NCBI GenBank assembly: GCA_963727775.1
Contig: CAVSHB010000002.1
Span: 256,001 to 320,000 of the forward strand
Direction of reading: 5' to 3'
Source of the DNA: an uncultured Nitrospiraceae bacterium
GTDB taxonomy: Bacteria > Nitrospirota > Thermodesulfovibrionia > Thermodesulfovibrionales > SM23-35
DNA: 64,000 bases
Within the stretch, counting starts at the first letter, position 1, and each line of letters begins with the position of its first letter. The notes under the pieces were generated by a model that had not been told where the DNA came from, did no database searches, and saw nothing but the letters and a program-made list of their open reading frames with translations. Positions 8,711-30,875 of this stretch are shown in pieces. The translations under genes were made by a program, and so were the position numbers.

Positions 8711-8781
8711 ATTACCGGTTGTACAGCACAGAATTATTACATTTCTTAAAGGTGCGGCTTTCAGGAAGGAAGCTTGCGCAT
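8711..8781 (-). repeat. Array repeat copy 1
   Basis: attaccGGTTGT acagcac AGAATTATtac...TTTCAGGAAGGAAGCTTGCGCAT (plus strand shown). Confidence 0.9.
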
Positions 8782-8829
8782 GGGCTCTCCTTGCCCCATG
8801 TCAACGGGTACCCCCTCGTCACTCTTTAT

Positions 8830-10463
8830 CCTAAAAAAAGCAGTTAGAGATCATGCCACACCAGTTTGAGGGAGCAATTTCCCTGAATTTATGTTCAAAG
8901 GGCCGATGATTTTTCTAAAAGCATGCATTGCTACAATCCTCATCCGCTCAGCGATATTCAACTGCTCCGCAGTGGTCCTAATATCCCCGAGGAACAGTGA
9001 TAGTCGTAACAATGCTCCCCGCACCTTTTCAGCCTTTGCATGAGGACTGGTAATAGTCAGAAAAGTCTGTCCCCCATGTTTTGTCTGTTTCGCAACTGCG
9101 TGTAACAGCAACGGTCTGCTCGTTATTGCCTCATGATGTTTATTTGGATTGGCCAGGCGCACAAACAGCGACCACCAGTTATATACAAGAGCTACCATGC
9201 GACTAATCATGCGGCATCGCTTCAAATCCTTTGTCGTATATCCGCCCCAGCCCCACTGATTCTTTAACTCGTCAAAGATATTTTCACTGTCTGCACGATC
9301 CCGGTAATGCTGTGCAATACTTGATACCTCATCAGAAAGAGAAGTCACCAGCACCGTGTACTCATACTTAGCCACTCCCCCTTGTGTCTCGATGAAACTC
9401 ATCTCCATTTGATCTTTCCCTTTTTTCTGCAAAAGAATATCCCCAGGTATAGGTCGGCGCAGCACGATCACCCGGCGACTACGGCTCCACCCAAATAACT
9501 TCAGCTCTGACTCCATTCCATAGTATCCGGCACCGGCTTTTACCCATTCTTCCATCTCAAACATTCTCTCGATCAATCTTTTTACATTCTTCGTAATCCT
9601 CAGCTTTGTGACATAATGTATACTACGTTTTTCTGCCTCTGATAACACTCCCTCTACTCCAAACGCTATATCTCCACGGATGAAGGCCGGCCGATTATCC
9701 CGGGGAATACTCTCTACCAATTCCCATAATCCAGCCGTGCTGTGACTCGATGCGGTCTCATTGCCCGCCTTCACTTCTACCTTTAACGCTAATCGTGTGT
9801 TTGCCATAAAATAACTGTGGTAACTGTGTGAGGGCCGCCCAGGTTTCTTAGGATTATATCCCACAACTGCCCCCTCTTGTTTGCCATACAGACACTTTAC
9901 CGTCGTGTCCGTATCAAGTATCCAGGAGGGGCCTGATACTGCCGATAATACAGGCATCGTGCAGCGTGCAAGCTCTGATTCAAGCCATTGTATCCCAGTC
10001 CCTTCTTCTATCTGCAATAAGGCCCGACGCGCCGCATCTTCACTGATTATCTTATCCATCCCCAATAACTCGGGATTCACTCCATCACTTCGTATCGCTG
10101 CGATATGTGCATATCGCTTATGTCCCGCAAGTATCGAAAGCATGAGAGTGCCTAACACGTTTCTCTTCTTCGGCGCATTCGGGCTGCTATAGGAGAGGGG
10201 ACACTCTTTTACAAAGGAATCAAACAACCCGCTGACTTTCAGAAATTCTATGAAAAATGGCAACTGCCCCAATGGGGTAACAGCTGCATCAGGGTCCCAT
10301 TCTACGTGTATCTTCCCCGCATATGTATCAATTCCTACTGAGTTGCTCCTTGCTATCGCACGCCGTTTTGCCTCACCCATTAGGTGAACCCTCCTGCCAC
10401 TCTTTTTCCGTTTATTATTGCATGCTTCGCCCCTTATGTGTATCCCGTACCGCTTTTTTTAGG
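8830..10463 (-). mobile_element. IS1380-family element
   Basis: IRs CCTAAAAAAAGC / GCTTTTTTTAGG; duplication TTTAT (8825-8829, 10464-10468). Confidence 0.92.
8851..10380 (-). CDS. IS1380-family transposase
   Basis: ILDTDTT, GYNPKKPG, IRGD, YRDRADSENIFDELK. Confidence 0.93.
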   Translation of the reverse strand: MGEAKRRAIARSNSVGIDTYAGKIHVEWDPDAAVTPLGQLPFFIEFLKVSGLFDSFVKECPLSYSSPNAPKKRNVLGTLMLSILAGHKRYAHIAAIRSDGVNPELLGMDKIISEDAARRALLQIEEGTGIQWLESELARCTMPVLSAVSGPSWILDTDTTVKCLYGKQEGAVVGYNPKKPGRPSHSYHSYFMANTRLALKVEVKAGNETASSHSTAGLWELVESIPRDNRPAFIRGDIAFGVEGVLSEAEKRSIHYVTKLRITKNVKRLIERMFEMEEWVKAGAGYYGMESELKLFGWSRSRRVIVLRRPIPGDILLQKKGKDQMEMSFIETQGGVAKYEYTVLVTSLSDEVSSIAQHYRDRADSENIFDELKNQWGWGGYTTKDLKRCRMISRMVALVYNWWSLFVRLANPNKHHEAITSRPLLLHAVAKQTKHGGQTFLTITSPHAKAEKVRGALLRLSLFLGDIRTTAEQLNIAERMRIVAMHAFRKIIGPLNINSGKLLPQTGVA

Positions 10464-10512
10464 TTTATAGACCTTACTCCATATTCCGGTTGGTATCACA
10501 TACATACGGCAC

Positions 10513-11067
10513 TCATTGCCACCGGATAATGCGGTCTTCGTAGTCTATCTGGAAGCGGGAGCTTTTGAGCATATCATTGCCGAGCAGTCCGTCGTAACTT
10601 CCGACCGCGCTAACCGGCACTTGGACACTACTAACCCGCCTCGGGCCGATGCTGATCGAATCGAGAACCACCAAACCAGCCAAGCTGAACCCTCCGACCC
10701 CTTGTATCAGCGAAAGGTTGGCGTCTTTAGGGTTTATTTCCAGCTGCCTGGCAATATTCGGACTGATGAGCGATGTAGCAGCGCCAGTGTCAAACACGAA
10801 CTGACCTTTGACCTCACGCCCCTTGTAGCTGACTGTGACCGGAACCACGATATGATTGTCTACAAGTTTGAAAGATGTCTCGGTCAGACTGTCACTTTCC
10901 TGAGCGTCGCGGGACACTATTTGAGCCTTATCTCCCGGATCGTCGGTAAATCTGACGTTGCCGTTATCGTCAATGTACTTATATATATCGGCGGCAGACG
11001 GTGAGTAGAAAATGAGAATAACAACCGCAACGGTAAGATAGCCTACCTGTGAATGCGCAAGTTTCAT
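10513..11067 (-). CDS. Secreted DUF4124 plus retropepsin-like aspartyl protease
   Basis: Signal peptide, IYKYIDDNGNVRFTD, FDTGA, GLLGND. Confidence 0.88.
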   Translation of the reverse strand: MKLAHSQVGYLTVAVVILIFYSPSAADIYKYIDDNGNVRFTDDPGDKAQIVSRDAQESDSLTETSFKLVDNHIVVPVTVSYKGREVKGQFVFDTGAATSLISPNIARQLEINPKDANLSLIQGVGGFSLAGLVVLDSISIGPRRVSSVQVPVSAVGSYDGLLGNDMLKSSRFQIDYEDRIIRWQ

Positions 11068-11124
11068 AATGTGTTCTACTCCCTATCGAGTCCTGTGTTG
11101 TCGCGAAAATCTTTCCATTGATAA

Positions 11125-11191
11125 TTTCCGAGTGTACTATGCAGAATTATATCAAGTTTCAAACATGTTTGCTTCAGGAAGAAGGGTTGCA
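11125..11191 (-). repeat. Array repeat copy 2
   Basis: ttccgAGTGT actatgc AGAATTATATCAAGTTTC...TTCAGGAAGAAGGGTTGC. Confidence 0.9.
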
Positions 11192-11214
11192 CTTGTTCTT
11201 GTAATTATGCATGT

Positions 11215-11724
11215 TTAATAATTCGAAACACCCCATCCCCAAAGTATTGCCGGTATTTCAACTGCAAGGAGACCTCCAATGAAGGAGAACGCATTTGCAA
11301 CAAAGCTGTATGCCATGCTTCTCAAAAGTGATGGCGCAGCTTCAGGTTGTCGTGTAAGTCTTGGTGATCGAAGAAGGTAAAAAACCGCTATCCCCTCGGC
11401 TAAGGTGACTGCGATTTCGCCGACAATTCCCACAATCGTCACGCCAACGAAGTTTTGCATTGCAACTATTGCAGTCATAAGAAGGATAAATGTGACGGTT
11501 GTAATCACTGTCCACACCCCTACAAATCGCCAGAAGTAGGGATTTGTTCCCTTTCCCAATCGCGCCACAATGACCCCTTCCATCGGCAGTAGGATGGGTA
11601 CAACAACAAGTGGAACCGGGTTCAAGATTATTGGATCAGCGAAAGCGATGGACGGGCAAAGCATACTTGCCACCAGCAATATAAAAAGATCCCTAAGGTT
11701 GTTTTTTGATTCGTGATTATTCAT
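11215..11724 (-). CDS. Membrane protein
   Basis: Signal peptide and several hydrophobic helices. Confidence 0.75.
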   Translation of the reverse strand: MNNHESKNNLRDLFILLVASMLCPSIAFADPIILNPVPLVVVPILLPMEGVIVARLGKGTNPYFWRFVGVWTVITTVTFILLMTAIVAMQNFVGVTIVGIVGEIAVTLAEGIAVFYLLRSPRLTRQPEAAPSLLRSMAYSFVANAFSFIGGLLAVEIPAILWGWGVSNY

Positions 11725-11752
11725 CCTTCCATCTACGGCTACAAAGTCGTCC

Positions 11753-11815
11753 TTTCGGTTATAACCTGTACAATTATATCATTCTCATGTGGTCTCAGCT
11801 TCGGGAGGCAGTCTT
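11753..11815 (-). repeat. Array repeat copy 3 (degenerate)
   Basis: tttcGGTTAT aacctgt ACAATTATATCA...TTCGGGAGG. Confidence 0.75.
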
Positions 11816-12033
11816 ACCCGTGGTAACTTTCGAGAATAACCGCATGTCTGTATTCTTCTTTCGAGCGAAAAGTTTGCTGAGAGCTCATCTGGCAGCAAAT
11901 TGGAAAATGCCTACAGAGTATAATAGTTTGGTAAAGACGATGACGACATTACATATTTTTTTATCCGTCCTTCTGGCTACTGACCCTTGGTCAGTCAGTT
12001 CCATTCGGGTTTCGAAAACATAAGACGAATGTA

Positions 12034-12879
12034 TTGATTATGACAAGAAGACTTAAGTTTCTACTAATCATCATGATATTGTTGGGCATATATATTGGCC
12101 GGAGCTATTGGCCATTTAAAGAGCAAATAAAGATAGAGACGGCTCATTACACTATCTATTCTACAGCGACGCAGCAGCAAACTATTCTTATCGGAGAAGC
12201 AAGTGAAAGCTTGTACGCTGCCTATACCGATTTTTTCAAAGATATGATAGATGCAAAAGAGCACAAGGGACGGCTAAGGATGAGGCTTTATAAGGATAGA
12301 GATGAGTTTAAGGCACACAACTGGAGTGCTCCCTGGGCAGAAGCATTCTATCACAACCCGTATTGTTATGCCTACTATCCCGAAAGTGAGGCCAATCCAT
12401 ATCACTGGATGATACACGAGGGAACCCATCAATTAAACCGGGAAGTTGCCCATTTTAAGGTGCCCGAATGGATTGATGAAGGCTTAGCAACATATTTCGG
12501 TTCAAGCAAAATAAGAAATGGTAGATTGCAACCCGGTGAAATCGATGTGAACACGTATCCTATATGGATACTACAAACTATTTCCTTGACGGGCAACCTT
12601 CAGAAGGATATCAACAATAACAAGATAATTCCTCTTCGCGCCCTAATTACAGGGACAGGAGGGCCTAATATCATCAGGCATTTTAATCTATACTACGTCC
12701 ATTATTGGAGCCTGACACACTTTTTATTTCACTATACGAACGGAAAATATTCTGATGGCTATAAAAGTTTGATCCGCGCAGGCGGCACATTGGAAGAATT
12801 TGAGAAGAGAATCGGATCGGTAGATCGGATACAGAACGAATGGTATGAGTACTTGCGACAGAGCGTGTCAGAAGTGTAG
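12034..12879 (+). CDS. Exported gluzincin-like metallopeptidase (DUF1570-like)
   Basis: HEGTH followed by WIDEGLA; N-terminal hydrophobic anchor. Confidence 0.82.
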   Translation: MIMTRRLKFLLIIMILLGIYIGRSYWPFKEQIKIETAHYTIYSTATQQQTILIGEASESLYAAYTDFFKDMIDAKEHKGRLRMRLYKDRDEFKAHNWSAPWAEAFYHNPYCYAYYPESEANPYHWMIHEGTHQLNREVAHFKVPEWIDEGLATYFGSSKIRNGRLQPGEIDVNTYPIWILQTISLTGNLQKDINNNKIIPLRALITGTGGPNIIRHFNLYYVHYWSLTHFLFHYTNGKYSDGYKSLIRAGGTLEEFEKRIGSVDRIQNEWYEYLRQSVSEV

Positions 12880-12965
12880 AAAAAATGAAAGAGCCCTAAC
12901 AGTTAAGTCATGCCAAATATTAACTTAAGGTTGACATCAGTATAGAAGCGCGAGAGTCTTGTCTG

Positions 12966-13038
12966 TTCCCACTTGTACTGAACATGATTATATCAGGTTT
13001 CGGTGCCGTTGACTTCAACAAGGAAGGATTATTGCCTA
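12966..13038 (-). repeat. Array repeat copy 4
   Basis: CTTGT actgaac ATGATTATATCAGGTTTC...CAAGGAAGGATTATTGCCT. Confidence 0.85.
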
Positions 13039-13130
13039 TCAGGACTCTCTGGAATACTACGTTTCTTTCACCCCGTAAGGCGCATAGCTTTTTTATCAAA
13101 GAGACCTGATAACCTTTAAAAACAGAAAGA

Positions 13131-14114
13131 TCAGAAAACATTCACTTTGAATGTCACTACTTTTGCAGGCGGCACATCCTTCTCCCAAGGTCTTATATAT
13201 CTAAAGTTGATTGCTGTTTTACCCTTCCCGGTAGCCTCGAAGAGCCAAACTTCTTTACCTCCTGCACCGATAAGCCCGGTTTGCGATTTCCTATATTTGT
13301 TGCGCACTAACCTGATAATTGTGCTCTCTTTTGGGCTGATCATCTCCCAGTGATATCCTGTGGTGACGTTTGAATCAAGAACAAGCGTAAAATGTTGACC
13401 AGGGGCTACTTCAATCTCCAAGCTGGGATTGCTGAACTCAAGTATATTCGATGCGACATTAATCACTTTTGCTCCGACAAAAGTACCGGAACTTTCGAAA
13501 TCAAAGGCGATCAGTACAGTACCGAGAAGTTCACAAGCGTGACAGCCATTCTGGAGGCGGTAGGCAGCAACAAACCTCTTTCCCTTGTTTAAAAGATCTT
13601 CGCCCTTCACACAAGGGGCGTCATATCTGTCACCAGGCCAGAGATTCACTTTAGGAAAATTGTGGGCTATTTGTTCATACAGTTTGTGCTTCGTTAGGTC
13701 CACATTCTTTAAAATGTCATTATCGTCGATGTCGATGACCGACGGGTTTCCGTTTACGAGATAACATCCGTAGTTCTCATTCGCCCTAAATGGATAAAAA
13801 ACTTGAGCGATATCCACCGCTCCGTCCCTTTGGAAGGCTGTTATATAGGCCGTATTTCCTATGTGTTTGGTAAAGACGATAGCCTCGCATGGGGCCCCTG
13901 AATCTTTCATCACGGTGACGAAACAAGCCCCAAAGTCCTTCACCGCTTCCATTGAACAGCGCTCAAGCACTTGTTGCCTAAAGGAACTACCGGGATTCCA
14001 GACTACTTCCGGACCTATCTGCTGATTTTCGGCTGAGGCGACACCAGTCAGGAAGCATATTATTATAAATATCTGGGCAATCAAACTCTTTATAGGCTCC
14101 CCTTTTTCTGACAT
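13131..14114 (-). CDS. Exported protein with C-terminal chagasin-like (I42) protease inhibitor domain
   Basis: SNVTTGYHW, GAGG, YIRPWE motifs. Confidence 0.85.
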   Translation of the reverse strand: MSEKGEPIKSLIAQIFIIICFLTGVASAENQQIGPEVVWNPGSSFRQQVLERCSMEAVKDFGACFVTVMKDSGAPCEAIVFTKHIGNTAYITAFQRDGAVDIAQVFYPFRANENYGCYLVNGNPSVIDIDDNDILKNVDLTKHKLYEQIAHNFPKVNLWPGDRYDAPCVKGEDLLNKGKRFVAAYRLQNGCHACELLGTVLIAFDFESSGTFVGAKVINVASNILEFSNPSLEIEVAPGQHFTLVLDSNVTTGYHWEMISPKESTIIRLVRNKYRKSQTGLIGAGGKEVWLFEATGKGKTAINFRYIRPWEKDVPPAKVVTFKVNVF

Positions 14115-14195
14115 CGCTTTAAGAATCTAAACCTCCCCCAAAAGACACTTCAAAACTCATTTCTCATTTTTTAAATCCAGCAAGACATTTCACCC

Positions 14196-14265
14196 ATTCC
14201 AGTTGAACTGCGCACAATCATAGCACCTTTGAATGGTGTTACCTACAGGAAGGAAGCTTGCGCAT
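14196..14265 (-). repeat. Array repeat copy 5
   Basis: attccAGTTGA actgcgc ACAATCATAGCA...CTACAGGAAGGAAGCTTGCGCAT. Confidence 0.9.
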
Positions 14266-14416
14266 ATACCTTCATCTTTTTTCACAATGCGTCTTTCGCC
14301 CCGTAATAAAAAGGGTATTTTTACGAGCGGATTCCCCGCTGGAACACCTCGGTTAGATGTAGTCATCATCGCCCAATGTCAGGGCTGACCCCATTCCCCT
14401 GTTACTTACAACAAGC

Positions 14417-16438
14417 TTATGAATCTGTTGATTTCTTGATATCAGTCTTGCCCTCAGAATCAATCTTCATACCAGTGAGTGCAATAGCCTGCGTAAGAAC
14501 TGTCGCGAGCCCTTCAGATGCACCGCCACTTCCGATCGTAAGAATATCAGGCATAATCTTAATCTTACCTGCAGAGATATGTTTTGCGAGCTCGATAGCC
14601 ATAATAGCCTGTGGCCCGATGGCTGTCTTCTGCTTTTCGTAGGCTTCTGCGGTAGCCGTACCGATTGATTCGATTGCCCTGGCATCACCTTCGCCCTTCA
14701 ATTTTGCGCTTTCCGCATTACCTTCGGCAAGTGTAACTGTTTCTCTTTTCTTCTGGTCGGCAACTTTGACGGCGATCTCGGCCCGAACAAGTTCCGGCTG
14801 TTGGTCGGCAGTGGCCTTTGTCTTTTCCATCTCAATTCTTGTAACTTCAGCCTTCTGCTGTTCCTTGTATTGTTCAGTCTGTTGCTGTGCAATAATTTTC
14901 TTTGTCTGTGTATCCATCAGCTCCTGGGGAAGTTTAATTTGACAAATGAGGACCGACACGCACTCAACATGATATTTTTCAAGTTCCAGCCGGGCCCTTG
15001 TTTCAGCCTTTGTCTGTTCTTCTTGTCTGTCCTGCATAAAGTTCATGGCTGAAGTGGTAGAAGCCTGATTTCTGAAGCTGGAATCAATCATTGGGTGAAT
15101 AACGTGAAGAATGAGATTGTCAATCGAACCGACTTTCGCCACCATATAGGGAGCTTGGTCCGGTCTGACTCTTACAACTACCTTAACGGATACTCCAATA
15201 GGGAACCCGTCTTTTGAAATAACACTCAATGGGTCAAACCTTGTCTCTTTTGCATCATCCCAGTCTATCGTTATGTTTGTTGTGTCGATGATATATGGCA
15301 TAAAGGCTAATCTGTTAAGATAGTATTTGCCGGGGCCGGCCACTTCTTCCTGGATGCCCCGATATCCTTTGGGAACCACATATTTCTCTTTGCCTTCTTC
15401 TTCGGTCGCCCCCATTTGAGTTGAGCCGAGTCTTCTCTTCATTTCAGATGTTGGCTCTTCACCCACATTTGAAACGACAACTGCAACCTGTCCACGCTCA
15501 ACAACTGCAACGTCATCAAACGCAACATTAAACATTAACGGGTTTATATAATATGTACCGGGCTTTAGAACATCAAGCTGAGGTCCACGCTGGCCGCCGC
15601 CTTTAAGGAATGAATTGGCATCCTGAAAATCGGAGTGTCCGGCGACTGACTTGGCAACATATTCTTTGTCAGGAAGCGGATCACCATCCTTGGCGATAAC
15701 CAAACCGACTTTTGCAGACTCAATCACTGCGGCTGGCTCAGTTGCCACCTGGAATAAATGAGTGTTGATACGATAAGTCCCTGGGAGAAGGATATCGATC
15801 TGTGGGCCTTTTTGCCCGCCATTCGCAAGAAACTTTTCACCAGCTTCAAAGTTATGATGGTCAGGCACACTTACTGCCAACAGTCTACCGGCAGCTATAG
15901 GATTGCCATCCTGCGATGTAACAACTCCCACCTGACCTTTTTCGATAACAACTGCCTGAGCAATTGATACCTTAAAGAGGTATGGATTTATTCTGTATTT
16001 ACCAGGCGGGAGGATGTCAATCTGCGGACCTTTCTGCCCCCCGTTTTGTAAGAACGCCTCCCCATCCTGAAAAGAATTATGACCCTGTACCACCTTTGCA
16101 AATATTTTACCGGGAGGGATTGCGCTGCCATCGACTGATTCGATAAGACCGACCTGCCCGTCCATAATCTCTACAAACTCGCTCTTTTTTGCAGTATAAA
16201 TAAACGGAATAAGAAAATGCATTCCCGGCCCCAGCGTCCTTGCCTGAATCCCGACTTCGTTGTTCATGGCAACGACCCTGCCCTGTGGCATCTTCCTGCC
16301 AAACCATCTCCGTTCAATAAGGGCAATCTCTTTACCACCGACAATAACAACTGATTGATATGCCAGGATTAAGGCGATAAATCCTATAATTATTCCCCCT
16401 ACTGAAAGCACGCCGATCAAATGCGAAAGAATTTCCAT
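14417..16438 (-). CDS. SPFH/flotillin-family membrane protein
   Basis: N-terminal TM, three GGQxGPQxDxLxPGxYxIN repeats, band-7 region, Ala/Glu/Lys-rich tail. Confidence 0.88.
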   Translation of the reverse strand: MEILSHLIGVLSVGGIIIGFIALILAYQSVVIVGGKEIALIERRWFGRKMPQGRVVAMNNEVGIQARTLGPGMHFLIPFIYTAKKSEFVEIMDGQVGLIESVDGSAIPPGKIFAKVVQGHNSFQDGEAFLQNGGQKGPQIDILPPGKYRINPYLFKVSIAQAVVIEKGQVGVVTSQDGNPIAAGRLLAVSVPDHHNFEAGEKFLANGGQKGPQIDILLPGTYRINTHLFQVATEPAAVIESAKVGLVIAKDGDPLPDKEYVAKSVAGHSDFQDANSFLKGGGQRGPQLDVLKPGTYYINPLMFNVAFDDVAVVERGQVAVVVSNVGEEPTSEMKRRLGSTQMGATEEEGKEKYVVPKGYRGIQEEVAGPGKYYLNRLAFMPYIIDTTNITIDWDDAKETRFDPLSVISKDGFPIGVSVKVVVRVRPDQAPYMVAKVGSIDNLILHVIHPMIDSSFRNQASTTSAMNFMQDRQEEQTKAETRARLELEKYHVECVSVLICQIKLPQELMDTQTKKIIAQQQTEQYKEQQKAEVTRIEMEKTKATADQQPELVRAEIAVKVADQKKRETVTLAEGNAESAKLKGEGDARAIESIGTATAEAYEKQKTAIGPQAIMAIELAKHISAGKIKIMPDILTIGSGGASEGLATVLTQAIALTGMKIDSEGKTDIKKSTDS

Positions 16439-16568: not shown

Positions 16569-16578
16569 AAAGAATCTA

Positions 16579-24139: not shown

Positions 24140-24200
24140 CACGCGCCTATGCATCCTTTGTCCTGGAATAAGCGTACCGTTCTATAAATGTCCTGTGAAC

Positions 24201-24653
24201 CTACTTGTTTGCATCTATGTTCTTATTCTTTAAGACCAATCGGATTGCAACAAGCGTTTTCTTGTTCTCCTCTGTAGGGAAGAGATCGTATGCTTTGGCA
24301 TAGTTTGCCTCCGCCTCCTTGGTATTGCCAAGTTCCTGATTCAGGGAGCCAAGCAGTGTATATCCGTAATAGAAGTCCGCATGTGCCTTAATTAGTCTCT
24401 GTAACATACCCTGCGCTTTATGGAACTCCCCTTTATCCAAAAGGCTTCTTGCCTCTTGCCAGGAATCCGTAGATTGCGGCACAACGCTGAGACGGCTCGA
24501 CATGCGATGTATGAATGGAGTCACCGCCACAACAGACACAACTAAGATACAAAAGACAATAGTGACTATTATGTACACCTTGTTAACTTTCTTAAATAAA
24601 GCCGTCTGATTCTTTAACTCTTCAAGAATTTGCCGTTGTATATCTTCATCCAT
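24201..24653 (-). CDS. Membrane-anchored TPR protein
   Basis: TM helix then TPR-like LG...G...EA...Y.KA..L.P; RBS GGAG. Confidence 0.82.
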   Translation of the reverse strand: MDEDIQRQILEELKNQTALFKKVNKVYIIVTIVFCILVVSVVAVTPFIHRMSSRLSVVPQSTDSWQEARSLLDKGEFHKAQGMLQRLIKAHADFYYGYTLLGSLNQELGNTKEAEANYAKAYDLFPTEENKKTLVAIRLVLKNKNIDANK

Positions 24654-24671
24654 TGCTCTCTCCTTTACTCC

Positions 24672-24731
24672 TTTCCGATTGTACTACGCACAATTATATC
24701 AGGTTTGAATGTTGCGGGTTTCAGGAAGCAA
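24672..24731 (-). repeat. Array repeat copy 12
   Basis: tttccGATTGT actacgc ACAATTATATCAGGTTTG...TTTCAGGAAGC; perfect ATTGT-N7-ACAAT. Confidence 0.92.
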
Positions 24732-24757
24732 TGGGGAATTTAGAAAATCAGCGGACC

Positions 24758-25126
24758 TCAAATTCTATCTCTCAATAGAAAAATACTTCCAACGATTAAC
24801 ATGGGAGCACTTATCCTCAAAAAAAATTGGAATAATGATTGCAAATCTACAGACGTATAGAATGAAAAAGCAATCAGGGATACAATACTACCTGTGACGA
24901 GCCATGATCCACCAATTTTATTTCGGAAGATTGACAGAATCACCGCAGGCAATGTTGAAATAGGCCCACTTAATATAATAAGCCATGATATCCGGGGTTC
25001 GTCTTGCCTGAAAACAAAAATTGCTCTTGTTCCTAAGAAGAAATGCATAACACCAATGCCGATGCCTACTATAATAATGCCTACATATAATCCTTTTCTC
25101 TTAATATCCTTATGATGATTATCCAT
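24758..25126 (-). CDS. Membrane protein (about 4 TM)
   Basis: Hydrophobic helices; start moved to ATG 25126 because the longer start lies inside the repeat. Confidence 0.7.
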   Translation of the reverse strand: MDNHHKDIKRKGLYVGIIIVGIGIGVMHFFLGTRAIFVFRQDEPRISWLIILSGPISTLPAVILSIFRNKIGGSWLVTGSIVSLIAFSFYTSVDLQSLFQFFLRISAPMLIVGSIFLLRDRI

Positions 25127-25180
25127 AATAGTCAACACAATTATATCAGGTCTCAAATACGTTTAGTTCAGGAAGGATTA
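25127..25180 (-). repeat. Array repeat copy 13
   Basis: agtcaac ACAATTATATCAGGTCTC...TTCAGGAAGGA. Confidence 0.88.
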
Positions 25181-25253: not shown

Positions 25254-25613
25254 TTAATTTAATCTCACAATCAAGACATCAGCAACAAGCTCCTTGCCGT
25301 TGTTTGCTGACTTCGTTACTTTCTTGAGAGTGAAATCTTTTCCGCAAACGATTTTTGCAACATCTTCTGTTTTTAGGTTGGAGAACTGTTCTTGAGTTGC
25401 CGCCCACGTTACCGGTCCAACAGTTACTGCTTTTCCCTCGCAATATCCTGCCACCATTGCGGTAACATTCCCAGCTTTGTTGTCATATGTTGCTCCCAGT
25501 CTTCCCGAAACTGTAGAGACAGATGAAGCTGCATAAGCCAGAGTTGCTCCGATGGAAACCGCTACTAATAACAAAACCATGAATAATAATCTCACGTTGG
25601 TCTTTTTACGCAT
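25254..25613 (-). CDS. Small secreted protein
   Basis: Signal peptide MRKKTNVRLLFMVLLLVAVSIGATLAYA. Confidence 0.78.
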   Translation of the reverse strand: MRKKTNVRLLFMVLLLVAVSIGATLAYAASSVSTVSGRLGATYDNKAGNVTAMVAGYCEGKAVTVGPVTWAATQEQFSNLKTEDVAKIVCGKDFTLKKVTKSANNGKELVADVLIVRLN

Positions 25614-25819
25614 TTCGCCCCTCGCTTTTATTCCTCGAAAAAGTTTGTAAGAGAAAATCCGATCCCCCTGAGACATTCTTCCCTTCACCTCTCATCCAGA
25701 CCCATACTGAGAGTTAAAGATTGTGTGGTTAGCTGTATGCTACTCTCTGTCTGGATTCTTGTCAAGATATCGTATATTTGGGTGGGATAATCTTTTACAC
25801 ATATTTGCTTATCGAATAG

Positions 25820-25877
25820 CAGTTAAAGTCCGCACAATTATAGCCGGTCTTGAAGTTGCGTGGTACAGGAAGGAGCT
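25820..25877 (-). repeat. Array repeat copy 14
   Basis: cAGTTAA agtccgc ACAATTATAGCCGG...TACAGGAAGGAGCT. Confidence 0.85.
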
Positions 25878-26033
25878 GAGATTTTAAAAACATCATTTTT
25901 CGCGACCTTCACCCCATACTAAGCATAGCCTTTTTGTTCCCTGCAGTAGTCCATGATGAATAATAATGAATATCTTCGAAACAATCAGTGATTACTTGAG
26001 TCTTTGAAGATGCGTCTTTCATTGTTCTTCTAG

Positions 26034-27736
26034 GAGTCTGTCGGACTTGAATTGCTGTTTTTGACAGCGGTTGGAATCCGAGAGAGTCGATTGTAGTTAT
26101 TTTTCATGATTTGATCGTCTGTCATCGGTTCTTTCCTGCCGGTGTTTTGTTGGATACATTATGCCATCGCCATTTTCAGGCGCCTACCTGGCTGTTCCTC
26201 AATGCATGCAGCCTTTTGATGTTCCATGCAATGCAGATCATATCCCACTCGCCATTGACTGCAGTAAAACCACGCAACAGGAATCGGTCAAATCCCATAG
26301 CTGCCTTGATTACCCCAAACGCCGGCTCCACAGTACTCTTGCGTATCGCATAAATTGCCTTACCGGCAACTGTCTTCAACCGATGTTTCATTCTTGTCAC
26401 TGCATCAGCATCAACCGGCAATGGAGGCGGTTCGACGAATCGCTCCCATAAAGGCTGATTATGACTCTGCCGATCTACTGCTATATATGGCTCTATTCCT
26501 TTGCTCTCACATTCTTGCACATTTGCTTCGCTGTAATACCCGCTGTCGGCTATTATAGTTTTTACTTTGCCAAGTTGTTCGGGCAGATATGTAAGCGCTT
26601 CAAGCGCTGGTTTCATCTGCTGTTTGTCATTGGATTGTTGTGTTACATGCGTTGCGACAATAAGCATTGTTTCTGTATCCACGGCTGCTTGAGCATTATA
26701 AGCCTGCTTGAATCCTCCACCCGATGCCGGCATTATGCGAGATTCTTCATCGGTCAGATTGACCTGATCTTTGTCAGTTGGCCCGGCTGCAGGCGGCTTG
26801 GGTCCTTTGCCTCGGGGTTTCTTGCCGCTCTGCTTTTGTTTGGCTACACGCTCTGCCTGTTTCTTTTCACTGTCGGCTTGTTCCATTGCATGCCGCTCTG
26901 CCGCACGGCGCTCTATCTCAGCTTTTGCTTCAGCTATCATTTTCAGCCGCTTCTCTCGCCGCTCCAGCTCTTCCGGGATGTTCATGCCGTCAGGAATGTC
27001 AGCTTTGTCAGCAGCCTCAGCTTTCTTCATCAGTTCCGCCACTTCCACTTTCAACTTATTCTCTATTTTGCATGCATGCCCGTAGCTCAACGCCTTGTGC
27101 TTTGAGGCATTGGCTTTCATTTTGGTCCCATCCAAGCTGACCGTGCCTAACTTCAATACCCCGGTTTCTGCTGCTATCATTAGTATCTGCACAAACAGTT
27201 CTTTCAGCTTAGGCAAAAACCGACGTCGAAAGGTTGCTATTGTGTCATGGTCAGGGTGACTGTTGGCTGCCACATACCGGAATGCTACAGAGTCGTACGT
27301 GCTACGCTCTAATTGCCTGCTCGAAAAGACTCCCGTCGCATATCCGTAAAATAATAATGCCACCAGCATCTCAGGGCTGTATGCCTCACTGCCTCGTCCT
27401 GCATAATCATTTTTCAACCGGTCAAGATTAAGCTGATCCACTATCTCTACGACAAATCTCGCCAAGTGACCCTCGGGCAACCATTCCTGCACCGACGGCG
27501 GAAATAAATATATCGTCTCTCTGTCACATTGTTTGAACATTATGCTGATCTCCTGTTGTTCATTCTTATGCCGCTTGTCTATTATGCCATAAGGAACGCC
27601 CATGCAGGTCTGTCGGACTTAGATAATTACAGGCCGAAAAGATTTCTGCTGCCCAGTTTGCAATAAAGGTTCTTAAGAGACTGCCGTGTCCTTCAAGAAG
27701 TAAACTTTTCAGAAATGTTGAAAGTCCGACAGACTC
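26034..27736 (-). mobile_element. IS1182-family element, copy 1
   Basis: IRs GAGTCTGTCGGACTT / AAGTCCGACAGACTC, flanked by CTAG; 1703 bp. Confidence 0.93.
26176..27540 (-). CDS. IS1182-family transposase
   Basis: PDHDTIATFR, LDGTK, ADSGY, RKSTVEPAFG; likely start MFKQ. Confidence 0.93.
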   Translation of the reverse strand: MFKQCDRETIYLFPPSVQEWLPEGHLARFVVEIVDQLNLDRLKNDYAGRGSEAYSPEMLVALLFYGYATGVFSSRQLERSTYDSVAFRYVAANSHPDHDTIATFRRRFLPKLKELFVQILMIAAETGVLKLGTVSLDGTKMKANASKHKALSYGHACKIENKLKVEVAELMKKAEAADKADIPDGMNIPEELERREKRLKMIAEAKAEIERRAAERHAMEQADSEKKQAERVAKQKQSGKKPRGKGPKPPAAGPTDKDQVNLTDEESRIMPASGGGFKQAYNAQAAVDTETMLIVATHVTQQSNDKQQMKPALEALTYLPEQLGKVKTIIADSGYYSEANVQECESKGIEPYIAVDRQSHNQPLWERFVEPPPLPVDADAVTRMKHRLKTVAGKAIYAIRKSTVEPAFGVIKAAMGFDRFLLRGFTAVNGEWDMICIAWNIKRLHALRNSQVGA

Positions 27737-27856
27737 CTAGTGTAAATGGCAGAGATTATTTATGGTCAATTTGTCCTATGTCAAGGGCTGACCCCATGGA
27801 TGTCCTTTTTGCGCCTTTACTCTTTCAGCACCTCTACAAACGGGCGTCATTAATCA

Positions 27857-28753
27857 TTAATAGGAAGATATCAGGGGGCAATTTTGGGGTAGCACCAGCT
27901 TAATTGTACCCGGCAGCACCTCAAAGCGAATTTTGTTTGTTTTAATAGGCTCACCATCCAGATTGATCGGCATCGCAACATCAGACTCCCATTCAGCCCA
28001 AGGCACCCTATAACGCTTGATATAATCTCCGCTGACTTCAGACTCCGTCAACTCCCTTATCACTTGCCCCAGATCTTTTGGTGGAAAGCGGAGTAATCCT
28101 ACAATATCCAGCAACCCGTCATCAATAAAAGCGCTGGGAGCTAACTGCTGGCCACCACCGGCCTGCTTACCATTACACACAGCGCCGACGATAACATCAT
28201 TTTGCAAAGACCCCTGGGGCATACGCAGTTCGCCCTTATAAGGCACAAATTTCAGCGCTTGTACCATAGCGGAAAGAGTATAAGCGCCTCCACCGAGAAA
28301 ATTCTTTAACGCCACTGGCGTGTTTGCTGTCACCTGAGCTCCAAAGCCGCCACTGGCCACGTTGATAAAGTGGAATTCGTTGGCCCTTACACCATCAACG
28401 GCACATGACTGACCGGATTGAGCCAGTTCCAGCGCAGCCAATGGATCCGAAGGGATGGAACATGCTGTGGCAAAATCGTTGGCAGTACCAAGCGGCAGTA
28501 TTGCCAATTCCGGTCGCTCAGCGGCTGGCAGTTGTAACATGGCATCAACAACCTCATTTACAGTGCCATCTCCACCGCCTGCCACCAGGCGAAGACATCC
28601 ATCAGCGCAAGCTTCTCGAACCAGCCGTTTAACATCACCTGCTTCCCAGGTGACCCTGACTTCAACGCCGCCGTTTTCTCTTGCGCTGTAAATCGCTGTC
28701 CGAACAGGTTTAAGTGCTGCTTTTTTACCGTTTAAAATGATTCGAATATCCAT
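27857..28753 (-). CDS. yegS: YegS-like lipid kinase
   Basis: RVTWE, AGGGDGT, PLGTANDFA, NLDGEP. Confidence 0.9.
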   Translation of the reverse strand: MDIRIILNGKKAALKPVRTAIYSARENGGVEVRVTWEAGDVKRLVREACADGCLRLVAGGGDGTVNEVVDAMLQLPAAERPELAILPLGTANDFATACSIPSDPLAALELAQSGQSCAVDGVRANEFHFINVASGGFGAQVTANTPVALKNFLGGGAYTLSAMVQALKFVPYKGELRMPQGSLQNDVIVGAVCNGKQAGGGQQLAPSAFIDDGLLDIVGLLRFPPKDLGQVIRELTESEVSGDYIKRYRVPWAEWESDVAMPINLDGEPIKTNKIRFEVLPGTIKLVLPQNCPLISSY

Positions 28754-28825
28754 TCAGAACCAATGGAATTAGCAATATAATTAAAACTATTTTCTTCATT
28801 GTTTATTCAATAAAAAAAGTTAACG

Positions 28826-28886
28826 ATTTATGGTTCTACTCAACACAATTATATCAAGGTCGGAAAGTGTTGCCTACAGGAAGAAA
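28826..28886 (-). repeat. Array repeat copy 15
   Basis: atttatGGTTCT actcaac ACAATTATATCAAGG...CTACAGGAAGAAA. Confidence 0.88.
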
Positions 28887-28896
28887 CGATGTTCCT

Positions 28897-29382
28897 TTAT
28901 GCTCTGTTATCAAGGACTTCTATCTCGGTCTTAAAAAGTAGGAAAAGCGAACCAATATCGTCTTCGGTCAGACCAATACCGTCTTCTTCGGCGTCTTCCA
29001 TTAGAGCTTCAAGGACATATTTCATTACATATGGCTGCTTAGAAACTTGGACGCCCGCAATTCTATCGATGAATTTGTCATGGGTTCCTTCAATGCTTTC
29101 TATTAAACGTATATTTTCATCATACCTTGCCATAATCTCCTTGGAAGAGATTTTTGGGAGCTTACCGCTTGAGTCAAGAAACATCTTATAAACAACAAAG
29201 GCGACATATATGGCAAGCTCTTTCACTTCCTGCTGAAGATCATCTGTGTATGCCATCAGAAAAGCTAAGAGAGCTGGCTGGTTCTTACCCATGGCAATCA
29301 TCTCTTTATTTGCCCTGTCTGCAGTGAAGGCGGCAACTTGTTGCCAGGTTTTCTCTACGAATACCTCAGATAAGGGGTCCAT
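28897..29382 (-). CDS. Hypothetical acidic protein
   Basis: 161-aa ORF with RBS AAGGAG. Confidence 0.78.
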   Translation of the reverse strand: MDPLSEVFVEKTWQQVAAFTADRANKEMIAMGKNQPALLAFLMAYTDDLQQEVKELAIYVAFVVYKMFLDSSGKLPKISSKEIMARYDENIRLIESIEGTHDKFIDRIAGVQVSKQPYVMKYVLEALMEDAEEDGIGLTEDDIGSLFLLFKTEIEVLDNRA

Positions 29383-29436
29383 TTAAATAACTGTCTCCTT
29401 TCTAAATCCTTTACTAGAATCGTACATCATGTCTGA

Positions 29437-29664
29437 TTATCCACCCGTAATATTTCTTATAAGCAATATTAAGCCTCCGATGATGAAGGCCAGAGCAAAC
29501 GGAATGAGCAGACACCCTGGAGTTGGTTTGTCGATATATTTGCCACGACCGACATAATAACCAGTAAATGATCCGATTTCGTTTCTGAAGACGAGCATGA
29601 GTATCCCAACAACAATGATCAACAGATCGATAAAAAAAGAATTGCGCGGCACAGTTGTCATCAT
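29437..29664 (-). CDS. Small membrane protein
   Basis: Two TM segments. Confidence 0.6.
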   Translation of the reverse strand: MMTTVPRNSFFIDLLIIVVGILMLVFRNEIGSFTGYYVGRGKYIDKPTPGCLLIPFALAFIIGGLILLIRNITGG

Positions 29665-29697
29665 AGGAGTAAAAAGATAGAAACTATATTAAATGAA

Positions 29698-29970
29698 TTA
29701 TTTTACCGCGCCCTTTAAAGCTTTCCCGGCTGTAAATTTCGGTGCTTTCCGGGCTGCAATCTTAATTATTGCGCCTGTTTGAGGATTACGCCCCTTCCGT
29801 GCCTTCCTCTTTGAAATCGAGAAAGTCCCGAAACCTACAAGAGCTACTTTGTTCCCTTTCTTCAGTGTCTTGGTAACTGCATCAACAAATGAGTTAAGAG
29901 ACTTTTCCGCTACTGCCTTTGAAGCACCTGAGTCTTTTGCCATTTTTTCTACAAGTTCTGCTTTTGTCAT
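29698..29970 (-). CDS. hup: DNA-binding protein HU
   Basis: [29 protein letters not shown]. Confidence 0.97.
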
Positions 29971-30070
29971 AGATACCCTCCATTAATATTAATTGTAAAA
30001 AAGTATACCATGCCTATATTGAAAAATAGCTATCATGCCATCTGGAAAATTATACATTAATCTTTTTTGT

Positions 30071-30652
30071 TTACTTCGGTATCGCTGAGTATGGCTGAGC
30101 TCGGCGCGCCCATTCACTCTGAGGATATTTTTCCGAAAGTGTGTCGTATGCCCGGCGAAGCGCACTTGCTTCGTGAGTCTTTTTATATTCAGCTACGCCA
30201 AGGAAGAAGATTGATTCGGGAGCCACGCCTGCATTGGGATGCTCTTCAATAACCTTTTTAAACCACTTTGACGCCTCCTCATGTCGTTCCTTCTCGAAAA
30301 AGACCATGCCTTTACTGAATTTGAGCTGTGCGAGAAAATCATCTGTAGGAATGTATCCGACAAGCTTTCTATGTACCCTGCCCCCAGCGTCCTGAATGAG
30401 GAACGTAGGGGTCCAGGCGATATTGAATTGTTTCATAAGTTCCGTTCGTTCCTTCCAGAAACATTGGCTCTTTAGTGGGACGTACTCCTCCTTAATGAAT
30501 GTTTGGACCTTTTCATCTGAATACGGACCCGCATTCATTGCAGCGCAGCCAGCTCACCCGTCGAACCAGAAGTCATGGAAAACCGGCTTGCCTTCTTTCT
30601 TTGCCTTTTCTAAGGCAGTCTCAAAATCCCTTTCCCATTTTATCTCGGCCAT
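30071..30652 (-). CDS. Thioredoxin-fold selenoprotein (UxxC) with C-terminal TPR-like region
   Basis: ATG 30652 with RBS AGGAGG; DFWFDG-TGA-AGC with in-frame TGA at 30554-30556; SECIS-like hairpin downstream. Confidence 0.88.
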
Positions 30653-30812
30653 GTCAATCCTCCTATATTAATTCACCAAAACCTGTTTAAATTGTATCAT
30701 GGGAAAAGAGCGAAATCATCTTTTGTGTTCAAGCACATCGAAAAGATATTAAGTGCCACCGGTCAAATTCAGCAGCCGCCAATAAGCGCGCTGACCTATT
30801 AACTGTACGGCG

Positions 30813-30875
30813 ACAATGATCCTTCCTGAACTAAACATTTCTGAAACCTGATATAGTGGTGCGTAGTTCAACTAG
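30813..30875 (+). repeat. Array repeat copy 16 (inverted)
   Basis: Reverse complement: AGTTGA actacgc ACCACTATATCAGGTTTC...TTCAGGAAGGATCATTG. Confidence 0.9.

Follow-up and report, generated by a model that had tools for sequence, protein, structure and literature searches.

A ~70-bp repeat in a Nitrospiraceae gene array is probably a shared promoter module that behaves like a mobile promoter

Introduction

Integrons consist of an IntI integrase, an attI site and promoterless cassettes bounded by attC. In the pdif / Xer modules of Acinetobacter plasmids, gene modules are bounded by short recombination sites. Extended −10 promoters form an established promoter class. Non-homologous genes may share homologous upstream regions; where identity is at least 80% across 50 nt or more, these have been described as putative mobile promoters (Nijveen, Matus-Garcia and van Passel 2012, PMC3575422), and the published families are mostly pairs (PMC3575422). 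Among the findings reported for acetogens is a new promoter motif with a TetR-family activator (PMC6873888). The targets named for IS110/IS1111-family elements include repeated host sequences such as REP and attC (Durrant et al. 2024, PMC11208160; ISPpu10 preprint 10.64898/2026.03.19.712850).

Here we analyse a window, by which we mean the whole 64,000-nucleotide stretch of DNA, from an uncultured Nitrospiraceae bacterium. As in an integron, a region rich in mobile DNA holds a tandem array of mostly single, co-oriented, unrelated genes with a ~70-bp repeat between them; unlike in an integron, the repeat lies 5′ of the genes with its own predicted extended −10, there is neither an attC-type hairpin nor IntI, and most copies are dispersed. 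Discrete gene modules, short bounding sites and nearby Xer-type recombinases recall the pdif / Xer modules, but an 11-6-11 dif-like palindrome is absent, the sole dyad seen by repeat search and folding being an imperfect one of 5 bp. As in regulons that depend on a dedicated sigma factor or activator, a single architecture precedes many unlinked genes, differs from housekeeping promoters and is kept before orthologues, whereas the block is unusually long, membership is mostly genome-specific and arrays reach 15 copies. Mobile promoters share with this locus the homologous upstream regions before non-homologous genes, across genera and with some pairs above the published threshold; the ~55 copies, the arrays and the clear internal promoter-like anatomy set it apart. 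Finally, the locus resembles known IS110/IS1111 insertions in that DEDD elements without terminal inverted repeats occupy one fixed dinucleotide of a multi-copy sequence, but the target would be a promoter box rather than a REP or attC hairpin.

Results

The sequence-only reading had counted 16 copies of the site, separating genes described as unrelated, mostly single and mostly co-oriented. ORFs and Pfam matches bear out this view of the genes. Between 8.7 and 30.9 kb we find 15 full copies and one degenerate copy, every one 5′ of the gene that it faces (Table 1); the site placed at 21869 is the degenerate one, and that given as 16781/20062 is a single copy into which an IS110 element has inserted. 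Two 18-mers from the earlier consensus have 8 and 7 matches with at most 3 mismatches, versus 0.10 and 0.11 expected from shuffles. A repeat search recovered an 11-copy, 66-nt family with 62–83% identity to the reference copy, and a profile built from the copies detects the 15 full copies in the window with E-values of 3e-9 to 1e-19 (nhmmer).

Table 1. Positions of the module copies and mobile elements within the window
Feature	Position	Strand	Evidence and context
Mobile unit, two tandem Xer-like tyrosine recombinase genes	3113–8019	+	Pfam, NCBIfam; apart from the module array
Module copy	8705–8786	-	nhmmer E 7e-16; first sense ORF 8299–8541 (80 aa, no Pfam match), then 8042–8299
DDE transposase gene of IS between two units	8851–10380	-	Pfam
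Module copy	11119–11198	-	nhmmer; before aspartyl-protease gene 10513–11067 (Pfam)
Module copy	11752–11827	-	nhmmer; before 169-aa ORF 11215–11724, no Pfam match
'Orphan' module	12960–13040	-	nhmmer; with ~95-nt upstream extension 13024–13106 (whole 12960–13106)
Module 14190–14270 with upstream extension 14250–14325	14190–14325	-	before chagasin-I42 inhibitor-domain gene 13131–14114
Module copy	16502–16581	-	nhmmer; before SPFH/Band-7 gene 14417–16438 (Pfam)
−10 and start half of module	16780–16851	-	before 60-aa ORF 16579–16761; upstream box moved to 20059–20076 by IS110 insertion
IS110-family element	16834–20061	+	DEDD transposase pieces 16852–17481 and 19061–19810 (Pfam); interrupted by DDE-type IS at ~17396–19028
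Module 20540–20616 with upstream extension 20597–20681	20540–20681	-	before CcbP calcium-binding gene 20089–20457
Module copy, best-scoring	21188–21266	-	nhmmer E 1e-19, covariance-model E 2.5e-17; before 123-aa ORF 20788–21159
Degenerate copy, upstream box only, without TATAAT	21903–21935	-	nhmmer E 0.011; upstream of hemerythrin gene 21294–21701
Module copy	24065–24146	-	nhmmer; before DUF3857/transglutaminase-like gene 22084–24000 (Pfam)
Module copy	24666–24746	-	nhmmer; before TPR gene 24201–24653 (Pfam)
Module copy	25113–25180	-	nhmmer; before ORF 24758–25156 (start codon uncertain, no Pfam match)
Module copy	25809–25888	-	nhmmer; before 144-aa ORF 25254–25688
DDE-type IS	26027–27740	-	transposase 26176–27603 (Pfam); 99.9–100% to L014 and L031; one of several near-identical copies
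Module copy	28820–28897	-	nhmmer; before YegS/DAGK-like lipid kinase gene 27857–28753 (Pfam)
Module copy	30809–30885	+	nhmmer; before TIG-domain gene 31101–31637 (Pfam); sole plus-strand copy, divergent array end

In gene sense, the repeat reads CTTCCTGAA, ~13 nt, GAAACC-TGATATAAT-TGTG, 3 nt, AGTACAA-nn-GG-n-AAT. With the T of TATAAT numbered 0, the CTTCCTGAA box occupies −30 to −22 (about −42 to −34 relative to the predicted start) and is followed by an ACA element at −17 to −15, an AAaCc element at −8 to −4, the nearly invariant extended −10, TGATATAAT, and a GG-n-AAT element at about +10 to +15. The imperfect palindrome TTGTG-N5-TACAA covers the edge of the −10 together with the predicted +1, the A of AGTACAA. 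Each specified position of TG-n-TATAAT is conserved in 37–40 of the 40 copies with E<1e-6, and the flanking boxes are conserved too. Modules measure 65–160 bp: a block of ~67 nt is conserved throughout and one of ~160 nt in a subset, the longer form being found in 13 G000 copies, where an upstream extension (GTAGGTG...GGCAAGC) is present. The degree of conservation differs from position to position, as it does in binding sites, and the spacers vary. Judged by its letters, the repeat is an extended −10 plus an upstream box plus a conserved start region.

Scanning the profile over the genome, as the sequence-only reading had envisaged for this and related genomes, gives 55 copies (nhmmer, E<1e-3). 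They are spread over all four contigs, and 40 lie outside the window array; a covariance model gives 58 matches in the genome. Eleven of 18 same-family genomes, each of another genus, contain 1–21 matches, in a 19th family genome (G031) the motif lies before cspA, and the full motif occurs in 30 of 80 fetched metagenome loci. Since copies lie on all four contigs and in 11 of 18 other genera, the repeat is not the marker of a single array. Nor is that array inside a tRNA-Thr island, as had been proposed: the window holds no tRNA, and the nearest tRNA-Thr (C2:221854) lies 34 kb before it.

Of the 55 copies, 39 are followed within 400 nt by the start of a co-directional ORF of 80 aa or more; 9 face an opposite-strand ORF and 7 have no ORF of at least 80 aa, several of those 7 preceding genes of 55–66 aa. 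Motif-to-start gaps are mostly 4–170 nt. The −10 element is thus suitably placed upstream of co-oriented genes for a sigma-70-type promoter (39 co-directional versus 9 opposite). Conservation before orthologous genes in related taxa, as for a regulon motif, is seen for a small core only, shared by 2–4 genera: a cspA paralogue (G000, G006, G017, G031), a gene for an FmdB-like Zn-ribbon protein (twice in G000, and in G006, G009 and G017), a flavin reductase gene (twice in G000, and in G006) and a 60-aa ORF. Many copies outside the array are singletons before conserved genes, and sub-families of the module share extra flanking similarity, across genera too. Most module-bearing genes are genome-specific. 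In fact, Band-7 orthologues (88–93% aa identity) in six other MAGs are without the module, and paralogues of the 144-aa ORF elsewhere have none nearby; most of the membership is therefore not that of a stably inherited regulon.

Promoter-plus-gene units reappear in other arrays, in other genera and on metagenome contigs, at other places and in changed order; the metagenome contigs show a mosaic. The unit at 11119–11198 is paralogous to one at C1:793k (L018 3596–4287 = window 11159–10464, 91.8%), and the CcbP unit to one at C1:794.7k (L018 5270–5776 = window 20568–20062, 91.8%). Nucleotide homology at the Band-7 gene ends at 16473–16496, the 3′ edge of the module. Here the earlier picture of a shuffling platform survives in part: units are modular, their order varies and homology is lost within or at the repeat, but the breaks fall at varying positions (about −24, −12, +1 and just after the motif) with no single crossover point, and the part that made the repeat an integron-like recombination site is not supported. 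One metagenome contig (X3, depth 2.6) joins 25865 to 16558 in the box, within a shared CTTCCTG; this junction pattern 'goes back 9308' and fits a circle or a duplication. We note that a join at equivalent positions of two copies is also what a site-specific system would yield.

The IS110-family element of the array sits at the CT of the CTTCCTGAA box, with junctions reading ...CTTCCTTC-CT, IS, CT-GTAG.... All six IS110-family elements of two types are at this same CT: the flanks read ...CTTC(C/T)TTC-CT and CT-G(A/T)A... in five of five copies of type C and in the only copy of type A. The four type-B copies are all located elsewhere. As at an IS110 target site, independent insertions share one position, and both of their junctions show the identical core dinucleotide. 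Rfam matching identified no bridge RNA.

Discussion

We consider it likely that the ~70-bp repeat is a shared promoter with regulatory boxes before ~55 mostly unrelated genes, and a passive recombination substrate. Extended −10 recognition by an RpoD-type holoenzyme would dispense with a TTGACA −35, and one or more putative DNA-binding regulators may occupy the upstream box, an activator position, and the start-site palindrome, a repressor position. The ~55 transcription units would thereby respond together as a large regulon, of which the window would be the densest 'regulon island'. A stress-type response would fit the gene content, which includes CspA, HU, hemerythrin, flavin reductases, Usp, calcium-binding proteins and numerous small proteins of no known function. 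The sequences show the anatomy, position and orientation of the module, its spread over the genome and the family, the lack of integron features, the modular rearrangement and the point of IS110 insertion; we infer the transcription start, the regulator, the physiological signal and the way in which units move. Because tRNA genes in the same genome use ordinary TTGACA-N17-TATAAT promoters, the module appears to be a separate promoter class, apart from the housekeeping promoters; TTGAC(T/A)-N17 promoters, with a long conserved leader, precede the other class of cspA paralogues. A generic sigma-70 scan did not flag the motif copies. Besides the Band-7 orthologues and 144-aa ORF paralogues without the module and the X3 join, the observations that count against this reading include the distance from CCTGAA to TATAAT, 21 nt, which matches no known −35 spacing, and the copy at 12960–13040, which has no gene to drive: it lacks a sense ORF and is directed into the convergent DUF1570 gene 12034–12879 at its 3′ end.

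The module may serve as a passive recombination substrate because it is the only sequence common to otherwise unrelated units. Promoter-plus-gene units would be duplicated, swapped and re-ordered through it, and IS110-family elements would take it as a specific insertion target. We give a low probability to the further idea that the predicted promoter module doubles as a docking site of RNA-guided (IS110/bridge-type) recombination, which would move whole units with a crossover at the CTTCCTGAA CT. Either the recombinase would act on pairs of motif copies, or homologous exchange between IS copies in different motifs would be followed by scarless IS excision. If true, cassettes would be shuffled with a regulon promoter of their own each, and no integron integrase would be needed.

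A further point against it is that conservation over ~67 nt (~160 nt in a subset) extends beyond the usual contacts of a transcription factor and sigma; this suggests that the copies are related by descent, not by selection alone. Overall, we most favour a new promoter or regulon module with the behaviour of a 'mobile promoter'. In fact, the copy at 24665–24730 is 83% identical over 66 nt to that at 21187–21252, before unrelated genes, a match that exceeds the mobile-promoter threshold. Most other pairs are 62–77% identical (about 60–80%), and most copies therefore seem old and under constraint rather than recently copied.

We regard as unlikely a self-propagating, promoter-bearing miniature mobile element (MITE-like, Correia-like or a 'putative mobile promoter') whose promoter activity would be a by-product or passenger. 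The recurrence of one 65-nt block (~160 nt in the 13 long G000 copies) upstream of non-homologous genes, the flanking similarity of sub-families and the pairs at 83% over 66 nt, beyond the published limit (PMC3575422), would suit such an element, but we find no terminal inverted repeats, target duplications or hairpins, and no near-identical copies that would mark recent transposition. The position-graded conservation with variable spacers is that of binding sites, and orthologous genes keep the module across genera. No associated transposase was found, and the IS110 elements interrupt the motif and do not carry it. The marks of a MITE/REP-type repeat were not found: no dyad lies in or around the copies, and the flanks are unrelated and show no duplicated bases.

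Very unlikely, in our judgement, is a cassette platform of an integron-like or other site-specific kind, with the repeat as the site where gene cassettes are captured, excised and reordered by a recombinase of its own, which could be the Xer-like pair next to the array or a bridge recombinase of the IS110 type. It would account for single genes bounded by the repeat, for the same units in different orders and scattered places in relatives, for homology that stops at the repeat and for the X3 join, and both candidate enzymes are at hand: 0.7 kb separate the first copy from tyrosine recombinase genes, and IS110 recombinases do act at the CT inside the repeat. However, the site lies 5′ of genes and contains a consensus extended −10, 40 of 55 copies are elsewhere in the genome, many of them single and ahead of conserved genes, breakpoints vary, and the only junction read is a single low-depth contig. 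The repeat contains no inverted repeat or hairpin; none within a copy was reported by the repeat search, and single-stranded DNA folds of 8 copies gave z-scores of −2.07 to +1.27, 7 of 8 above −0.4, in agreement with the earlier statement that the site is not an attC hairpin.

The recombinases argue against such a site as well. The first gene (3200–3967 plus 6815–7057) is split by an IS21 at 3878–6716. The second (7044–7976) scores 114 bits against a cut-off of 265 for the integron-integrase model TIGR02249, matching profile positions 2–182 and 257–318 and skipping the IntI-specific middle; its best NCBIfam matches are the XerA/XerC/XerD models, likewise below cut-offs. The 2,063-bp recombinase element has a second ~100% copy at C3:79165–81227, and the array loci fetched from other genera contained no relative above 28% identity. 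By their profile matches, the tyrosine recombinases next to the array are Xer-like enzymes and not integron integrases, and their duplicated ~2-kb element is a mobile unit apart from the array. The sequence-only reading was thus right that the window holds no integron integrase, though it passed over the Xer-like genes at 3200–7976, which lie in their own duplicated element. Its proposal of an own recombination site is contradicted by copies throughout the genome and by others that, in three to four genera, stand before orthologues of cspA and of the FmdB-like gene, a pattern of the kind that the reading itself had named as refuting it. An integron was rejected: attC imperfect inverted repeats, an IntI insert, a 3′ repeat position and a single array at intI/attI were all absent.

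Most improbable is a conserved block that acts as RNA, either a cis-regulatory leader of riboswitch or thermosensor type or a small RNA gene, with its promoter further upstream or on the opposite strand: conservation does run to about +15, beyond the predicted start, the antisense strand of the extension can fold in some copies as a stem followed by a U-run, and the nearly symmetric TATAAT makes divergent transcription conceivable, but, cspA coding-region matches aside, there is no Rfam match with E≤1 in window 8000–32000 or in six relatives' loci, RNAalifold, applied to both strands of 23 extension copies, gives no consensus structure, single copies fold no better than shuffles, and the most invariant letters are exactly TG-n-TATAAT.

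Sigma paralogue count and motif count are correlated (Spearman 0.63), and genome size is correlated with motif count more strongly (0.73).

Motif copies and the genes beside them

The sequence-only reading had described 16 copies of a repeat of about 70 bp, and this observation is confirmed: with 3 mismatches allowed, two consensus 18-mers match 8 and 7 times, where shuffled sequence would give about 0.1. A repeat search of the window brought together a 66-nt family of 11 members, 62-83% identical to its reference member, and a profile built from the copies recovers 15 full ones at E 3e-9 to 1e-19. The copy at 21869 is reduced to its upstream box, while the entry listed as 16781/20062 is a real, single copy, split in two by an insertion sequence. 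ORF and family annotation bears out that neighbouring copies enclose unrelated genes, usually one each: an aspartyl protease, a chagasin-type inhibitor domain, SPFH/Band-7, a CcbP calcium-binding protein, hemerythrin, transglutaminase-like and TPR proteins and a YegS-like kinase, alongside several ORFs without family. The proposed tRNA-Thr island is not in the window: ARAGORN detects no tRNA there, and the closest tRNA-Thr is on the contig 34 kb ahead of the first window base.

All window copies but one are on the minus strand, likewise the genes, and each copy stands 5' of a gene when read in gene direction. In this sense the motif reads ...CTTCCTGAA-(~13 nt, often ..C.ACA..)-GAAACC-TGATATAAT-TGTG-nnn-AGTACAA-nn-GG-n-AAT, with a ribosome-binding site and start codon another 4-170 nt beyond it in most cases. 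The letters TG-n-TATAAT, the consensus extended -10 element, are kept in 37-40 of the 40 copies with E<1e-6. Given a -10 at TATAAT, the predicted transcription start is the A of AGTACAA; the CTTCCTGAA box then lies at about -42..-34, and an imperfect palindrome, TTGTG-N5-TACAA, straddles the -10 edge and the predicted start. This architecture points to a putative regulator.

The orientation of downstream ORFs supports the reading as a promoter: a co-directional ORF (at least 80 aa, start at most 400 nt downstream) is found at 39 of 55 copies and an opposite-strand ORF at 9. The other 7 copies have no ORF of such size, and several of them stand before genes of 55-66 aa. We note one window copy without a co-directional gene, which aims into the 3' end of a convergent DUF1570 gene and could be an antisense promoter or a rearrangement relic; a similar orphan occurs in metagenome contig L216.

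The motif appears to be a promoter class apart from the organism's usual one, since a generic sigma-70 promoter scan did not flag its copies and the tRNA genes of the source genome (G000) carry canonical TTGACA-N17-TATAAT-type promoters. The cspA loci of 20 family genomes also fall into two promoter classes: one paralogue has the motif (in G000 and in G006, G031 and also G017, which represent other genera), whereas the other, widespread class has a TTGAC(T/A)-N17 promoter and a long conserved leader with a hairpin. This second-class leader, about 130 nt long (..AGATTTTAGAGGTTTTTGCG..GGCCACAAAGACTTTTAGCTTTGTGGCCTTTTTT..) with the terminator-like hairpin inside, is seen behind a TTGACT-N17 promoter at loci L288-L312 from about 15 family genomes.

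Distribution across the genome and its relatives

The 3.43-Mb assembly holds 55 profile hits at E<1e-3, with every one of its four contigs represented; 40 lie beyond the window array, some as singletons and some in smaller clusters. A sequence-only covariance model gives 58 matches in the same genome. Of 18 further genomes of the family, one per genus, 11 have 1-21 matches; outside the family but within the order, 2 of 12 genomes have a single weak match. Copies are clustered in relatives too. In public metagenome contigs, at least 117 stretches match CTTCCTG-N18-20-TGATATAAT; the whole motif is recognized by the profile in 30 of the 80 stretches fetched from these, and some hold three copies within 1-4 kb.

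The downstream genes of G000 are heterogeneous. Beyond those in the window they include a second Asp protease, a second CcbP, two flavin reductases, two FmdB-like Zn-ribbon proteins, CspA, methylglyoxal synthase, a Gp49/HigB-like toxin with its HTH partner, ankyrin and TPR proteins, a sulfotransferase, a CAAX protease, hydrolases and many ORFs without family. In relatives the motif precedes genes for HU (twice), PilZ (three times), an EF-hand protein, hemerythrin, Usp, an OYE-type reductase, CspA, methyltransferases, a multihaem cytochrome and RsgA. Clustering of the downstream ORFs (54 own and 69 from relatives) leaves only a small common core: an FmdB-like protein (G000 twice, G006, G009, G017), CspA (G000, G006, G017), flavin reductase (G000 twice, G006) and a 60-aa ORF (G000, G006). 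This gene content suggests a stress-type response.

Some copies carry a further ~95 nt directly upstream (GTAGGTG...GAGAAAAA...TTACGGGGCGAAAGAAAC...GGCAAGC). This extension occurs with 13 G000 copies, always adjoining the motif, and in other genera too (loci L002, L003, L127, L128, L133, L135, L178, L233 and others). RNAalifold predicted no structure on either strand from 23 copies, and a small ORF is rejected by stops in several copies on both strands. Rfam searches returned no family at E<=1 in window 8000-32000, and in six relatives' loci only cspA coding-region matches and chance miRNA hits. The long conserved block, together with sub-families that have another ~95 nt upstream in common, indicates that copies spread by descent, through putative duplication and exchange of promoter or promoter-plus-gene units. 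Such spread as units would place the family among the 'putative mobile promoters' of Nijveen et al. (PMC3575422).

Locations of the motif and associated features
Feature	Location	Remark
Motif array	window 8705-30885	full copies
Orphan motif copy	window 12960-13040	
DUF1570 gene	window 12034-12879	convergent to orphan copy
Upstream extension	window 13024-13106; 14250-14325; 20597-20681	
Motif cluster	C1:474.8-482.9k	5 copies
Motif cluster	C1:792.5-794.8k	4 copies
Motif cluster, relative	G006:C9:3.9-18 kb	
Motif copy without upstream box	window 16780-16851	
IS110, window type	window 16834-20061	in motif
IS110, second type	C2:384.1-387.3k; C2:574.3-575.9k; C3:106.8-108.4k; C3:201.8-203.4k; C4:121.0-122.6k	in motif
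IS110, third type	window 45.0-46.3 kb	outside motif
Group II intron	C4:~120,400-121,000 (L035 2335-2933)	minus strand
tmRNA gene	C3:198617-198966 (L034 762-1111)	206 bits
rec1-rec2 unit	window 3113-3877 + 6717-8019	2,063 bp
rec1-rec2 unit, second copy	C3:79165-81227	~100% identity
istA/istB of IS21	window 4487-6557	IS21 disrupts rec1
Recombinase trio	C1:478.8-481.6k (L014 6975-9785)	
Recombinase trio, second copy	C1:38.0-40.8k	
RpoD-like (group 1/2) sigma genes	C1:855534; C3:406241; C3:30548; C1:917259; C1:31023; C1:868012; C1:745968; C4:297486	
Tex-like gene	window 39733-42010	
IS607-type recombinase and TnpB genes	window 58554-60336	

Motif-plus-gene units are modular

Comparison of individual units reveals that they are modular. 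The Band-7 gene has orthologues at 88-93% amino-acid identity in six other Nitrospirota MAGs, the closest homologues being from uncultured Nitrospirota of groundwater and sediments, and each of the six has the gene in other surroundings, the motif being absent upstream of it. At the nucleotide level, homology begins at 16440-16496, short of the motif's 3' edge (~16508) in every case, and ends 16-37 nt past the stop codon or just before it. For the window's Asp protease and CcbP units, the C1:792-795k array contains paralogous units at 92% identity, the two in reversed order; high identity sets in within the motif (positions about -12 and +1) and ends 27-50 nt after the stop codon. In metagenome contigs L169, L193 and L216, neighbouring small units are 72-95% identical to scattered places in G000. 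Between L216 and C1:475k, homology runs through an HTH gene and the motif and ends ~20 nt beyond it; the segment that follows matches C1:1124k.

The junctions are located at about -24, -12 and +1, and also directly behind the motif. Such scatter is more readily explained by exchange at any place in the sequence held in common than by a recombinase bound to a single crossover point. Four DNA runs gave only short contigs of low depth, most of them over IS elements. One of these, a metagenome contig of run X3, connects 25865 to 16558 inside the CTTCCTG common to two copies, in a configuration that goes back 9308. As a single contig at depth 2.6, this joint is a hint only; its source may be a duplication, a circle junction or another order of the units.

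The cassette platform proposed by the sequence-only reading stands as to modular, shuffled units, but its integron-like character is unsupported. Eight copies folded as single-stranded DNA gave no attC-type hairpin stabler than shuffles (z -2.07 to +1.27, 7 of 8 above -0.4), and the repeat search reported no dyad inside copies. Tyrosine recombinase genes, which had been overlooked, do exist beside the array at 3200-7976; they are Xer-like and not integron integrases. The integron-integrase model gives rec2 114 bits, below its cut-off of 265, and the match to the profile is in two pieces that leave out the middle, the part holding the IntI-specific insert. Hence all testable defining features of an integron fail: there is no hairpin, the recombinases are Xer-like, the motif is 5' of its genes and its copies are dispersed. 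The second, ~100% identical copy of the tandem rec1-rec2 genes marks this pair as a mobile unit in its own right, and no close relative of it was found in array loci fetched from other genera. A different set of three consecutive tyrosine recombinase genes, 'recombinase in trio'-like, lies inside another motif array and has a second copy elsewhere on C1.

IS110-family elements insert at the upstream box

One window copy lacks its upstream box because an IS110-family element fills the place. A DDE-type IS nested in this element divides its DEDD transposase into two parts, and the flanks of the element read ...CTTCCTTC-CT on one side and CT-GTAG... on the other. Elsewhere in G000 a second IS110 type occurs five times, always between ...CTTC(C/T)TTC-CT and CT-G(A/T)A... 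and with motif or motif-like sequence behind. All six elements of these two types thus sit at the CT of the CTTCCTGAA box, whereas a third type, with four copies, inserts outside the motif. In the six motif-borne elements the transposase starts only 18-26 nt from one end, so that it is the opposite end that is long and non-coding, an arrangement also seen in IS1111-like elements. No Rfam match to a bridge-RNA family was obtained in three IS110-bearing loci.

PMC11208160 describes site-specific insertion of the IS110 family into repeated host sequences (REP elements, attC sites), with a short core at the centre. The six insertions agree with this account of targeting, and the motif is in that respect a recombination target, though of an IS exploiting a multi-copy sequence. 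The choice of a promoter box would turn off individual regulon members. In G000, a group II intron (Rfam D1-D4 and domain V) opens with GTGCG directly after ...GGTACA of the motif copy at C4:121015, whose upstream box holds an IS110; this motif-intron arrangement recurs in metagenome contig L194 at 95% identity. A tmRNA gene lies ~3 kb from another IS110-interrupted copy.

A putative regulon promoter

We consider it likely that the motif is the promoter of a regulon. In this proposal, an RpoD-type holoenzyme would read the extended -10 without a canonical -35, and the upstream box and start-site palindrome would serve one or more putative regulators. G000 has eight RpoD-like and two ECF sigma genes; across the family, members have 1 to about 7 RpoD-like genes, against eight in this 3.4-Mb genome. 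No single sigma factor can be assigned to the motif, since the -35-recognition helix of region 4.2 is nearly the same in the eight paralogues (TRER(I/V)RQIE kept in 6 of 8), two motif-positive MAGs have only two RpoD-like genes, and the correlation of motif count with sigma paralogue number (0.63) is confounded by that with genome size (0.73). Compared by eye with consensus sequences, neither Rex, CRP/FNR, NtcA, Fur, LexA, sigma-32, sigma-54, ECF nor MerR-type spacers fit, nor does a CsrA site, whose GGA is not conserved (GGT in half the copies).

By its sequence the feature would be a new, lineage-wide promoter module, unusual in length, copy number, clustering and IS110 targeting; no prior description was found in the literature searched, a limited collection. 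To our knowledge, nothing is known on transcriptional control in this Nitrospirota family, for which the motif offers a ready testable regulon of about 55 promoters, with at least 12 genera represented. It may also be an unusually large, clear case of promoter reuse, one promoter standing before dozens of genes that are unrelated and in many cases recent acquisitions, grouped in arrays of units each complete in itself; this has a bearing on the way in which genes that a genome gains come under a response it already has. As a caution, what looks like cassettes arrayed around an unfamiliar site can turn out to be a promoter island.

Other features of the window

The Tex-like gene consists of two overlapping ORFs (a 243-aa N-terminal part and a 535-aa remainder), a split that could be a frameshift or a sequencing error. 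Genes for an IS607-type serine recombinase and TnpB (OrfB_IS605/Cas12f-like) lie between two PmbA/TldD-family genes.
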